Below are positions 3,014 to 58,425 of a stretch of DNA of 64,000 nucleotides, one piece after another. The stretch is taken from the NCBI RefSeq assembly GCF_044324875.1, contig NZ_CP172187.1; one strand, 5' to 3'. The first letter of the stretch is position 1. Each line of letters opens with the position of its first letter. Origin of the DNA: Escherichia coli. Lineage in GTDB: Bacteria; Pseudomonadota; Gammaproteobacteria; Enterobacterales; Enterobacteriaceae. Position numbers and translations under genes: made by a program. The notes beneath the pieces were generated by a model, which saw only the letters and a program-made list of their open reading frames with translations, was not told where the DNA came from and did not search any database.

Positions 3014-3376
<363 letters not shown>

Positions 3377-52592: not shown

Positions 52593-52794
52593 ACCTCGTC
52601 AGGAGGCTGATCTGACCGGCCTCCTTGCTGACGCCTCGCGTTGCTCGTTGTCCAACCCCGGGATGTAACAAAATAAATTTTGTCACCTCCCGGCGTTTCC
52701 GAAATAAATATGAAAACACTGAGCGGTTGTGCAAATTCTTTGTGCGACCGTGAAGTGTTGCCGGCGAAGCCGGGATCTTCCGGAGAAAGTCATT

Positions 52795-53509
52795 ATGACA
52801 TCAGACAATATCGCTGAATATGTTGGTGAGAATAATCAATTTACTGAGAAGCCTGTAACTGAATACCCCCCGGTGATACAGGATAATACAGTGACCACTA
52901 AAGACTATCTGTACAGCAATAATATTGATACTGACCTTTTAGTGGTTATCGGAGGGCTTATTGTTATATTGTTTCTCATGATGCTTATCATGTACTTTAT
53001 TAATTCTCTCAGGCATAAGGAATTAACTGAAATACTGACAAAAATATCTTTTCCTGAAAAATCCGGGAGCAATTCGCTTAAACCGGAAGCGGTCAGCTGT
53101 AATTTGTTGTCCCTGTGTGTGCTGGCACCGGTATTCTGTACACCCAAAAAGCTGGCTGAAGTTTCCAGGGAGATCATCGTGGCGAGTGCGCAGGAGATTG
53201 CATGGACGCCGGGGAGCAGTCGTATTGATGGTCATCAGGGCGAAAATATTACCTGGTCTCTGTCGTCACAGTCTCATGCCGATAAATACGAGCTCATCAA
53301 TAAAACGTCCCGTGTTTCTCCTGACAGTGGCCGTTTTTATGAACCGGACACAGTTCTGGATCACCGTGAACGGGTACGCCTTTTTATTCAGATCCAGTTT
53401 CCGCATGGGAGTGACTGGTCTGAAGTATTGCGCCTGACTGACATTGTTGCAGAGAAGGTCTCTTCCGGCAGGACTGCAGGTGCGTATTCCGCTCTATTCG
53501 ATCACGGAT
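52795..53509 (+). pseudogene. unknown membrane-anchored protein gene truncated at its 3' end by IS insertion
   Basis: ORF 52729-53583 reads through into IS terminal sequence; one TM segment; AT-rich start. Confidence 0.5.
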
Positions 53510-53579
53510 TGGCATCGAAGTCCGATCAGCGATTCGCATCCATTCGATCAACCGGGAACTTAACTTTTTCTACCGCTTT

Positions 53580-54335
53580 TTAACGCGTTTTTTCGCTGCT
53601 TTCCACTACCGGGGGATTTTTCCTCAGTGACTCTCCCTGAAGGACCACTCGGTGTGAGTTATGTACCAGTCTGTCCAGGATGGCATCTGCTGTTGTTGGG
53701 TTCTCCATCAGACCATGCCATTTATCTACCGGGAACTGGCTTACCACTATCGTGCTGCTTTGTCCGTAACGATCCTCTATGAGCTCCAGAAGGTCATTAC
53801 ACTGGGCGTTACTTAACTGTTCCAGCCCCAGATCGTCCAGGATTAGAACCTGTATTTTTTGCAACTGTTTCAGATATTTCAGCCAGCTGCCATCAACACG
53901 TCCCTGAGCCAGTTGTTCCAGTAATCGCCCGGTTCTACAGTACCGGACGCTGTGTTTCTGTCGACATGCCTGTTCGCCCAGCGCATTGGCTATCCAGCTC
54001 TTGCCACATCCTGTCGGACCGGTTATCAGCAGGTTTTTCCTGTGGGTTATGTAGTGGCCGTTCAGCAGTTCTCTCATCTGTTCAGCCCGCAGACCTCTTG
54101 AGGCCGGATAGCGCAGCCCTTCCGGTGTTGCCTGGTATTTCAGGCCGGCATTTTTTCTCAACCGTGCCACACGGCTGTTTTCCCTGCTCAGAAGCTCGTC
54201 ATCAACCAGCAGCGTCAGCCTTTCCTCGAACGACAGTTCGTCGTAGGTCTGAGGCGTTTCCCGCTGCCGTATCAGGCTCCCGGCCATCGCCGGGAGTTTC
54301 AGTTGGGTCAGTTTGTTTAACAGGTTATCACTCAT
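53580..54335 (-). CDS. istB: IstB helper ATPase
   Basis: 251 aa from MSDNLLNKLTQLKLPAMAG; Walker A GPTGCGKS. Confidence 0.9.
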   Translation of the reverse strand: MSDNLLNKLTQLKLPAMAGSLIRQRETPQTYDELSFEERLTLLVDDELLSRENSRVARLRKNAGLKYQATPEGLRYPASRGLRAEQMRELLNGHYITHRKNLLITGPTGCGKSWIANALGEQACRQKHSVRYCRTGRLLEQLAQGRVDGSWLKYLKQLQKIQVLILDDLGLEQLSNAQCNDLLELIEDRYGQSSTIVVSQFPVDKWHGLMENPTTADAILDRLVHNSHRVVLQGESLRKNPPVVESSEKTR

Positions 54336-54351
54336 ACTGTTGTTCCTTCTG

Positions 54352-55887
54352 TCAGTGGTAGTAGCCCGGACCACGCAGGTTTTCATGCTCTGAAGCATAT
54401 GCCGGATGTTGTTCGCCCTGGCGGGATAATGGAAGCTCCAGGTTCTCCCGATGGTGACGCAGCAGATTGTCGATAAAGCGTCTGTCAGGGGCGTTATAGT
54501 GCAGGGCAACGTAACAGGCCTTTTCCAGCCGTTCCGGGCCGTATTTTTTCTGAAGTGCCAGCAGCCCCAGAACTGCACGATAAGCCAGTTCCGGATGGGG
54601 TTTTGCCTTCAGCATGGATTCAACCACCCGGCCTGTGGACGGGCCCGTACGTTTTCCCTGCTCGATCAGGCGTTCCGGTGTCCATGTCCCGTGCTGCCGG
54701 TGGCGCTCTGGCATGTGAAGCGGATTGGTTGTGTGTTTATATTCATGTGTGCTGCGCGGATGTTGCGCCACACACTGCCCCTTGTGCCAGAGCTGTACCA
54801 CCGACTGCCCCGCCTTCAGTGACAGACGCTGACCGACCAGTTCGTGTGGAACGGAGTACCAGTGACGGGCATATTCAACGTGGTAGTCAGGGCCAACCTT
54901 CACAGCTTTGTATTCCGTGTATTCATAAGGTGCCAGAGGCAGCGGAGAGAGTGCTGGCGCATCCAGTATGCGGAAGCGTTCTGCACGGGTTTGATTGCCG
55001 TACCCCTTCATTGGCCGGTTATTCATGTCTGTCAGTAACTCCCTAAGGCGCGCATTCAGCGCCCTGAGCGTGTGGAAGGTTTCATTACGGATGCGGGCAA
55101 GAAGCCATCGTTCAACGATGAGGACGCCGTTTTCTGCTTTTGGTTTATCTTTAGGTTTGCGTGGTCGGGCCGGGATGATAACCGTGCCATAGTGCTCAGC
55201 CAGTGCCTGATAACTGTCGTTGATGACAGGCTCATATCGATCGGCCTTTTTCACTGCGCTTCTGAGGTTATCGGGGATGAGCAGCTTCGGTACGCCGCCC
55301 AGGAAGGTCAGGCAACGGCTGTGGGCATTTAACCATGACATCATGTCCTGACCTTCGCACGCTTCAACGTAGGTATAGTTGGACGCCCCCATTACGGCCA
55401 CGAAGATTGCCACGCGGCGTATCTCACCGGTGTCCGGATTAATAACAGGAACCGTAGGACCACAGAAGTCGATAAAAAGCTTTTCGCCGGCACGATGCTC
55501 CTGGCGCATGGAGAGACGTCGCGTTTTTTTCCACTCCCGGTAGCAACGGCAGAAGTGCGAGTATCCCATCGCTTTGTTACCCGCCTGTGCCTTGTATTCC
55601 ATCCACAACAGTTGCCGCGTCACACCTGGTTTTCTCATTTCCGTATCGAAGTACAACATGTCAGGCATTACAAGCTCTGATGCAAAGGTGTCTTTGGGCG
55701 GAAAAATGAGTTTCTCCAGCGTGTCATGGGATATATCAGCAGGTAATGGCCATGACAGAGAAGAGGCTTTGAAGCGGGCAAGAACCTCAAAAACGGTTGA
55801 GGCGCTGATGTGTAACGTCAGTCCGATACAACGGTTAGTCAGCTTCTTGTCGAACTTGAGCTGAAGGATCTTAAAACAGGTTTCCAT
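54352..55887 (-). CDS. istA: IstA transposase (DDE)
   Basis: 511 aa from METCFKILQLKF...; AGGAG RBS. Confidence 0.85.
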   Translation of the reverse strand: METCFKILQLKFDKKLTNRCIGLTLHISASTVFEVLARFKASSLSWPLPADISHDTLEKLIFPPKDTFASELVMPDMLYFDTEMRKPGVTRQLLWMEYKAQAGNKAMGYSHFCRCYREWKKTRRLSMRQEHRAGEKLFIDFCGPTVPVINPDTGEIRRVAIFVAVMGASNYTYVEACEGQDMMSWLNAHSRCLTFLGGVPKLLIPDNLRSAVKKADRYEPVINDSYQALAEHYGTVIIPARPRKPKDKPKAENGVLIVERWLLARIRNETFHTLRALNARLRELLTDMNNRPMKGYGNQTRAERFRILDAPALSPLPLAPYEYTEYKAVKVGPDYHVEYARHWYSVPHELVGQRLSLKAGQSVVQLWHKGQCVAQHPRSTHEYKHTTNPLHMPERHRQHGTWTPERLIEQGKRTGPSTGRVVESMLKAKPHPELAYRAVLGLLALQKKYGPERLEKACYVALHYNAPDRRFIDNLLRHHRENLELPLSRQGEQHPAYASEHENLRGPGYYH

Positions 55888-56226
55888 AGTGCTCCTGGAT
55901 TTTCTCTTTCTGGACATTGACGTCTCCACTGGTTTAAACACGGCAATGGAGACTGTGGTGAAAAGAGTTAATTCCCGGAGTGACTGGCAGGATGCCAATC
56001 AATGATCGGAAGCATGCCAAATCGTGATCGATTGTGATGCCAAACTGTGATCGGAGATGGATGCCAAATCATGATCGATTCGAATGCCAAACTGCGATCG
56101 ATTCAGATGCCATTTTGCAGCAGGCGGGTATCACCACCGGCATACAGGGTACACCTGGTCTGTTTCTGTGAATTAACCCCACATCATCCTTTTCTGCCCT
56201 GTTCCAGATTTTCCCGGAGTTTCATC

Positions 56227-58425
56227 ATGAGTTTTAACGCAAAGGATATGACCCAGGGCGGTCAGATTGCGTCCATGCGTATCCGCATGTTCAGCCAGAT
56301 CGCCAATATCATGCTTTACTGCCTGTTTATTTTTTTCTGGATACTCGTTGGTCTGGTTTTATGGGTAAAAATAAGCTGGCAGACGTTTGTGAACGGCTGT
56401 ATTTACTGGTGGTGTACCACGCTGGAAGGCATGCGGGATTTAATCAAGTCCCAGCCAGTATATGAGATTCAGTATTACGGCAAAACCTTCCGGATGAACG
56501 CTGCCCAGGTACTGCATGATAAATATATGATCTGGTGCGGTGAGCAGCTATGGTCCGCATTCGTTCTGGCGTCTGTCGTGGCCCTGGTTATTTGCCTGAT
56601 CACCTTCTTTGTTGTCTCCTGGATTCTGGGGCGTCAGGGTAAACAACAGAGCGAAAATGAAGTCACAGGTGGTCGTCAGCTGACAGACAATCCGAAAGAC
56701 GTTGCCCGGATGCTGAAAAAAGACGGCAAGGACTCCGATATCCGGATTGGCGACCTGCCGATTATCCGGGATTCCGAAATCCAGAACTTCTGTCTGCACG
56801 GCACGGTCGGGGCCGGTAAGTCGGAGGTTATCCGTCGTCTGGCCAACTACGCCCGTCAGCGCGGTGATATGGTGGTGATTTATGACCGTTCAGGGGAATT
56901 TGTTAAAAGTTACTATGATCCCTCCATCGATAAAATCCTGAATCCGCTGGATGCCCGCTGTGCCGCATGGGATTTGTGGAAGGAGTGCCTGACACAGCCG
57001 GATTTTGATAATACCGCAAATACTCTGATCCCTATGGGTACAAAAGAGGACCCGTTCTGGCAGGGTTCAGGACGTACCATTTTTGCGGAAGCGGCGTACC
57101 TGATGCGTAATGACCCCAACCGCAGCTACAGCAAACTGGTGGACACACTGCTTTCCATCAAAATTGAAAAACTGCGTACCTTCCTGCGTAATTCACCGGC
57201 AGCCAACCTGGTGGAAGAGAAAATTGAGAAAACGGCGATTTCCATCCGTGCTGTGCTGACCAACTACGTGAAAGCCATCCGTTACCTGCAGGGGATTGAG
57301 CATAACGGTGAGTCTTTTACCATCCGTGACTGGATGCGTGGTGTCCGGGAAGATCAGAAAAACGGCTGGCTGTTTATCTCGTCGAATGCCGACACCCATG
57401 CCTCCCTGAAGCCGGTGATCTCCATGTGGCTGTCCATTGCCATTCGTGGTCTGCTGGCAATGGGAGAAAACCGTAACCGTCGTGTGTGGTTTTTCTGTGA
57501 CGAGTTACCCACGTTACACAAACTGCCGGACCTGGTGGAGATCCTGCCGGAAGCCCGTAAGTTCGGAGGCTGTTATGTGTTTGGTATCCAGTCCTATGCC
57601 CAGCTGGAAGATATCTACGGTGAGAAAGCGGCGGCCACGCTGTTTGACGTCATGAACACCCGTGCTTTTTTCCGTTCCCCGAGCCATAAGATTGCAGAGT
57701 TCGCTGCCGGTGAGATTGGTGAGAAAGAGCACCTGAAAGCCAGCGAGCAGTATTCCTACGGTGCTGACCCGGTACGTGACGGGGTATCGACCGGTAAGGA
57801 TATGGAGCGTCAGACACTGGTCAGTTATTCCGACATTCAGTCTCTGCCGGATCTGACCTGCTATGTCACTCTGCCCGGACCGTATCCGGCAGTAAAACTC
57901 TCCCTGAAATATCAGGCACGACCGAAGGTCGCTCCGGAGTTTATTCCGCGTGACATCAACCCGGAAATGGAGAACCGTCTGAGTGCCGTACTTGCTGCAA
58001 GGGAAGCAGAAGGTCGCCAGATGGCCAGCCTCTTCGAACCGGAGGTTGCCTCCGGAGAAGGCGTGACTCAGGCTGAACAGCCACAACAGCCACAACAGCC
58101 ACAACAGCCACAACAGCCACAACAGCCACAACAGCCACAACAGCCAGTGTCTTCTGTCATGAATGATAAGAAGTCAGATGCAGGTGTGAGTGTTCCGGCA
58201 GGGGGGATCGAGCAGGAGCTGAAAATGAAACCGGAAGAAGAGATGGAACAGCAACTGCCACCCGGGATCAGTGAATCCGGTGAAGTGGTGGATATGGCCG
58301 CTTATGAGGCATGGCAACAGGAAAATCATCCGGACATCCAGCAGCAGATGCAGCGTCGTGAAGAGGTGAACATTAATGTGCACCGGGAGCGCGGGGAGGA
58401 TGTTGAGCCGGGAGATGATTTCTGA
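56227..58425 (+). CDS. traD: TraD coupling protein (T4CP)
   Basis: 732 aa from [13 protein letters not shown]...; Walker A GTVGAGKS; C-terminal QPQ repeats. Confidence 0.9.
58078..58146 (+). repeat. in-frame 9-bp tandem repeat (CAGCCACAA)x~7.7 encoding (QPQ)n in TraD C-terminus
   Basis: Read directly. Confidence 0.9.

Follow-up and report, generated by a model that had tools for sequence, protein, structure and literature searches.

The array of tandem repeats at positions 55979-56116 (minus strand) of the analyzed window, a stretch of 64,000 nucleotides from Escherichia coli contig NZ_CP172187.1, consists of six direct repeats of about 23 bp and can be interpreted, with a probability of roughly 0.9, as a set of binding sites for the transposase IstA that belong to an intact ISSso4-like insertion sequence (IS) of the IS21 family and lie in its left terminal inverted repeat. 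This interpretation combines the boundaries of the element, the arrangement and conservation of the repeat units and the homology of IstA to a structurally studied transposase, by analogy with which binding is proposed. The original prediction that these are the multiple terminal repeats of the istA-proximal end of an IS21-family element is borne out by an istA/istB element that is bounded by a target-site duplication (TSD). Features of this kind are known, as is the very common enterobacterial element that carries the array, and with an expected end architecture and a repeat number that matches the reference the array contributes little in terms of discovery. Its use lies in annotation, for which it provides exact borders, the TSD and a map of the individual sites.

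The element spans positions 53481-56119 (2639 bp, minus strand), and its completeness is indicated by an identical copy elsewhere and by the empty target site. Its termini, TGCAAAATGG on the left and GGAATACGCA on the right, are of the form 5'-TGC...GCA-3' and thereby show the TG...CA ends of the IS21 family. The TSD reads GCAGG and adjoins the right (istB) end at 53476-53480 and the left (istA) end at 56120-56124. The empty site, composed of both flanks and a single GCAGG, is found uninterrupted in four plasmids with 100% identity over 500 bp; because the joined flanks with one GCAGG match this site at 100%, the borders of the element are fixed to the base. Duplications of 4-8 bp are found across the IS21 family, and those of other copies of this element measure 5-7 bp. 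In detail, TSD lengths of 5 bp (window and copy L004), 6 bp (L003, L016, L017 and L020) and 7 bp (L002 and L019) were observed, and two further copies (L001 and L018) are without a clean target duplication.

Two consecutive genes are encoded on the minus strand, in the istA-istB order that characterizes the family. The first, istA (54352-55887), is preceded by an AGGAG ribosome-binding site and its translation yields a DDE transposase of 511 aa that matches the Pfam model Mu-transpos_C_2 above the cut-off (E 3e-20) and the model rve slightly under its curated cut-off (E 1.5e-7, 32.1 bits versus 32.6). The second, istB (53580-54335), encodes an AAA+ helper ATPase of 251 aa (Pfam IstB_IS21, E 1e-60). 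The element is inserted directly upstream of traD in an F-like plasmid, 108 bp before the traD start (ATG at 56228), with istAB oriented opposite to traD. This exact insertion was absent from PLSDB and from the complete RefSeq E. coli genomes, and the empty site is common. The insertion may be polar on traD and on the long open reading frame (ORF) that follows it, and may in this way impair conjugation. At the other border, a hypothetical ORF (52729-53583) located between an upstream 244-aa ORF and traD loses its last ~17 codons to the IS. A listed ORF of 792 aa that starts with GTG at 56047 (56047-58425, plus strand) was discarded as an artefact of ORF listing, as it corresponds to the traD frame running upstream into the end of the IS, with the true traD start at the ATG mentioned above.

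The left-end array follows the consensus TTGGCAT-N5-8-CGATC and is divided, from the terminus inward, into the units L1 (56094-56116), L2 (56071-56093), L3 (56047-56070), L4 (56024-56046), L5 (56002-56023) and L6 (55979-56001). The six TGGCAT boxes are located on the minus strand at 56107-56112, 56084-56089, 56061-56066, 56037-56042, 56014-56019 and 55992-55997, with a spacing of 23, 23, 24, 23 and 22 bp from the outermost to the innermost box. Measured from the left terminus, the first TGGCAT box occupies nt 8-13 and the first CGATC box nt 20-24. CGATC follows five of the six TGGCAT boxes, and the innermost one (L6) is followed by a degenerate CAGTC. This register of the units was set by analogy, and the alternative reading CGATC-N6-TGGCAT has a more constant spacing. 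The predicted "about six" tandem repeats of ~22 bp were thus recovered at a spacing of 22-24 bp, provided that the count includes the outermost unit at the terminus as well as the degenerate L6. The span originally given, 55990-56112, does contain the array, but it ends 7 bp short of the true terminus at 56119. Tandem Repeats Finder reports a period of 23 at 56014-56112 (4.3 copies, score 90). The exact motif GATC-N6-TGGCAT occurs six times in the 64-kb window compared to an expectation of 0.23, and none of 100 dinucleotide-preserving shuffles reached this number. The ends of a single insertion sequence account for all exact matches, with five in the left array and one, inverted and 2.5 kb away, at the right end. 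When one mismatch is permitted, the motif is not enriched across the window (9 versus 5.4 expected), and significance is limited to the exact motif and its clustering; in the search with one mismatch, a seventh, degenerate site appears beside the inverted right-end match.

The right end carries three units, R1-R3, which are read inward on the plus strand (53484-53552) and form inverted repeats with the left end. R1 has a degenerate first box (TTCCGCT), R2 has the complete TTGGCAT (53509-53515) and R3 has TTCGCAT (53533-53539), each followed by CGATC. With L1-L6 on the left, R1-R3 on the right and a period of 22-24 bp, the element displays the multiple two-box direct repeats of about 23 bp, at least two per end, that are characteristic of the IS21 family. 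Directly inside the left repeats lies the block CCGGGAATTAACTCTTTTCACC (55957-55978, minus strand), and an inverted-repeat search identified its partner CCGGGAACTTAACTTTTTCTACC at the right end (53552-53574, plus strand). This block, CCGGGAAyTTAAC...C(T)ACC, is common to both ends inside the arrays, in inverted orientation, and extends the homology of the ends to ~95 bp. Since both ends carry it, they align throughout, apart from three additional units (~69 bp) by which the left end exceeds the right. An Aeromonas relative likewise has an inner block that is common to both of its ends.

Among 20 units collected from four diverged elements, only the boxes CGATC and TTGGCA approach an information content of 2 bits, with variable sequence in the spacers. 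Conserved boxes separated by variable spacers are the signature of a two-part site for a binding protein. The structural model is IS5376 from Geobacillus stearothermophilus, whose IstA (PDB 8B4H, 8Q4D) is homologous to that of the window element (phmmer, E 6e-14, residues 75-373 aligned). The N-terminal 74 residues, in which HTH-1 is expected, gave no phmmer alignment to IS5376 IstA. At each end of IS5376, two direct repeats of 23 bp begin 4 nt away from the terminus and, according to cryo-EM and biochemistry, contain the boxes CS1, read by HTH-2, and CS2, read by HTH-1 (PMC10122671). Two complete repeats are needed for integration, and in the IstA tetramer the catalytic subunits occupy repeat 1 and the structural subunits repeat 2 (PMC10122671). 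By analogy, each ~23-bp unit of the window element would be an IstA site with the boxes TTGGCAT and CGATC at a distance of about one helical turn, and the tetramer that pairs the ends and catalyzes transposition would need only L1-L2 and R1-R2. L3-L6 and R3 would then be accessory sites. The extra units may load additional IstA beside its own gene, may make the left end differ from the right and would probably damp istA expression. The binding of IstA to the repeats and a requirement for IstB in strand transfer are predicted here from homology.

In IS5376, IstA binding covers promoter elements within the ends (PMC10122671). The autoregulation of istA via promoter occlusion is a hypothesis that is borrowed from that element. 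A sigma-70 promoter scan of 53400-56300 on both strands returned no site with at least 9 of 12 matches, and visual inspection of a junction formed by abutted right and left ends revealed only hexamers with 2-4 of 6 matches. For the left end, this negative result counts against promoter occlusion by IstA, which would need a promoter to act on. An Rfam scan of 55700-56300 produced a single chance-level match (snR67, E 0.31, 18 bits versus a gathering score of 55). The leader of ~100 nt that separates the istA ATG from the repeats (55885-55978, minus strand) is predicted to fold with -30.9 kcal/mol, more stably than shuffled sequences (z -3.1). The fold comprises a hairpin of 10-12 bp (GTCTCCATTG...CAGTGGAGAC) and an outer helix in which CUCC, located just inside the repeats, is paired with GGAG of the ribosome-binding site. 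Four elements, down to an identity of 82%, retain this fold, with changes that are almost all one-sided; one pair shows a two-sided change in one sequence and is broken in another. By analogy with IS10, the leader fold may block the translation of transcripts that read in from outside.

GATC, the recognition site of Dam, is frequent in the units (55992-56100 and 53500-53550), with five occurrences among the 150 bp of the left end and three among the 100 bp of the right end compared to 1.9 per kb across the window. Judging from Cupriavidus and Burkholderia relatives, which use TGATCA as well, GATC appears to be primarily part of a putative binding box. In enterobacteria, the GATC sites in the units would be methylated by Dam. 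It is conceivable, although doubtful, that L3-L6 constitute a regulatory array that tunes the activity of the element by loading IstA in cis, repressing istA and marking the left end, that alleles with 6, 5, 4 or 3 sites set different transposition rates, and that binding might depend on Dam methylation of the GATC in the predicted HTH-1 box. If true, such Dam-dependent binding would link transposition to the replication of the DNA, in the manner of IS10 and IS50.

Searches of plasmid and E. coli collections revealed that copies of the element are abundant. Plasmid CP110413 carries, at a different position of the tra region, a copy with 100% identity over all 2639 bp. The 240-bp left end is present with an identity of at least 99% in 217 plasmids of PLSDB, and one and the same E. 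coli chromosome record can hold copies at as many as 12 places. Using the copy on the Shigella sonnei plasmid pINV (L002), whose IstA is annotated as "ISSso4 family transposase", as a stand-in for the ISfinder entry, the same gene order, a length of 2638 versus 2639 bp and a nucleotide identity of 96.3% over the full length were observed. The S. sonnei copy also has six left-end boxes and three right-end units. It differs by a nucleotide divergence of ~3.7%, including a mutated sixth box (TGGAAT) with an adjoining 1-bp deletion. By convention, ISfinder treats elements with roughly at least 95% DNA identity as isoforms, and in comparison with the pINV stand-in the window element falls within this range. 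In agreement, PGAP labels the IstB of identical copies "ISSso4 family helper ATPase IstB", and such copies have been named ISSso4 or ISSso4-like on E. coli and Salmonella plasmids (PMC6052338, PMC6361801). Among more distant elements, one from Edwardsiella tarda (82% identical) has six boxes, and one from Enterobacter (82% identical) and an E. coli remnant have five each.

Shorter left ends were detected in some ISSso4-like copies. Four boxes are present in L003 and L005, and three in L004, which is located on a plasmid, and in L019, a chromosomal copy with 96.8% identity to the window element. Only BLAST matches covering query positions 1-300 were accepted as true short forms. Many further matches in E. 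coli genomes (query 1-293, 99%) had the appearance of three-box copies and proved on inspection to be six-box copies aligned in a shifted register. The four-box and three-box forms are each found in several different replicons, and perfect TSDs flank L003 (GCCAGA), L004 (AGGCT) and L019 (ATCTAAG) at different sites. Short copies with TSDs are consistent with inner units that are dispensable for transposition, as the IS5376 system predicts. They could also have lost units after insertion, and the TSDs are no proof that short ends transpose. One reading of this variation holds that L3-L6 have no function and are neutral products of unequal recombination or slippage, tolerated since only L1-L2 matter. 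It draws on natural copies that range over 6, 5, 4 or 3 boxes, on deletion breakpoints that fall inside repeats and on the sufficiency of two repeats for IS5376 (PMC10122671). However, the inner boxes are conserved as well as the outer ones across elements that are 82% identical overall and whose spacers drift, every relative examined has more left than right sites, and the six-box form is the one that more than 200 plasmids carry with 100% identity and that occupies up to 12 places per chromosome record. Neutrality of the inner units is therefore regarded as unlikely, and they are treated here as putative accessory IstA sites.

The number of repeats had also raised the suspicion that six copies are unusually many and might reflect a duplicated end, with a comparison to the reference element proposed as a check. 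A recent duplication or rearrangement of the left end of the window copy, or an assembly artefact, would give it more repeats than the reference. There is indeed a higher-order repeat of 47/45 bp, in which L2-L3 resembles L4-L5 at 81-84% and which Tandem Repeats Finder reports as a period of 47 at 55990-56100 (2.4 copies, 81% matches, score 141). The reference, represented by S. sonnei ISSso4, has six sites too and the idea of a duplicated end is therefore refuted; the same six boxes are present in the more than 200 plasmid copies with an identical left end and in the 82%-identical Edwardsiella element. Moreover, the full-length element has its 100% identical counterpart elsewhere, the left end possesses a single TGCA terminus with no nested second end, and the two-unit blocks are ~19% diverged, which dates their duplication as old. 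A recent event in this copy is thus extremely improbable. The array probably owes its length to the duplication of a block of two units that is older than the split of these elements and thus not peculiar to the window copy. Hardly any credence can be given to iterons or a partition/centromere-like site of the F-like plasmid, for which direct repeats of 19-23 bp are typical and for which the plasmid context (traD and the long downstream ORF) would be suitable, as the TSDs enclose the repeats and the empty site lacks them, in contrast to backbone features beside a rep or par gene that are present independently of the IS. The repeats also move with the IS into chromosomes and unrelated plasmids and have inverted copies at the other IS end.

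With the repeats interpreted as putative IstA sites, their number can be compared to that of relatives within the subgroup with long IstA proteins. The sites of five elements with 44-52% IstA identity, a small sample, were mapped. An unnamed Aeromonas element has five direct and no inverted sites at its left end and three sites at its right end. Four direct left sites are found in ISEc12, ISRme9 and ISBmu3, accompanied by 2-3, 4 and 5 inverted left sites, respectively, and by two right sites in each case. IS1491 has about three direct and no inverted left sites, with a right end without clear mapping. As in the window element, the first four of these relatives display a period of 22-24 bp; their first box is at nt 7 from a TGCGTA/TGCATA terminus. 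The second box of ISRme9, ISBmu3 and ISEc12 is TGATCA or GATC, comparable to the CGATC of the window element. The relatives differ in having 3-5 direct sites and, in ISRme9, ISBmu3 and ISEc12, 2-5 inverted sites between the direct array and istA, whereas the window element has six direct sites and none inverted. Six is the largest direct array in this small sample, the window element included; a total of 5-9 left sites is the rule in the subgroup, and left sites outnumber right sites in every relative examined. Judged by these site maps, six sites are normal for the subgroup. For IS21 itself, the numbers are three repeats on the left and two on the right. From element to element, the two boxes vary independently of each other, with TTTCGG paired with GGCCA in the Aeromonas element and with TGATCA in ISRme9, a pattern that would fit two separate reading heads.

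Two further observations concern individual relatives. ISRme9 (L013, 1202-1400) and ISBmu3 (L014, 1197-1400) accommodate 8-9 sites in ~200 bp, an arrangement that is more elaborate than the structurally studied model with two repeats. The relative L007 on Enterobacter plasmid CP057783 (~3209-3240) starts with TACAAAATGG instead of TGCAAAATGG, has the TSD AAAAG and adjoins short tandem 8-mers (GCAAAAGT GCAAAAGT ACAAAAGT ACAAAA...) that are similar to its own terminus. These 8-mers may reflect a target preference or a coincidence.

The comparison with IS5376 reveals both common and distinct features. Repeats of ~23 bp that begin ~4 nt from a TG terminus, a 5-bp TSD and a homologous IstA are found in both elements, as are two conserved boxes per repeat at close positions and about one helical turn apart. 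The differences lie in the number of repeats, two per end in IS5376 versus six left and three right in the window element, in the size of IstA (400 versus 511 aa) and in the boxes themselves, which are GCCG/CCCCA in IS5376 and unrelated to TTGGCAT/CGATC. The role of extra terminal sites in such transposons is still discussed as an open question (PMC10122671), and the natural left ends with 6, 5, 4 and 3 sites could provide a ready allelic series for asking what extra terminal repeats do in IS21, Mu and Tn7-type elements. Phage Mu, with L1-L3 and R1-R3, and Tn7, with several TnsB sites in different arrangements on the left and right, also use DDE transposases with tandem helix-turn-helix domains, and they resemble the window element in having several asymmetric sites per end and a catalytic core that uses only a subset of them, as is proposed here for L1-L2 and R1-R2. 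Since Mu and Tn7 belong to other families, have other site sequences and employ additional host or accessory factors, the likeness is one of mechanism and not of membership.
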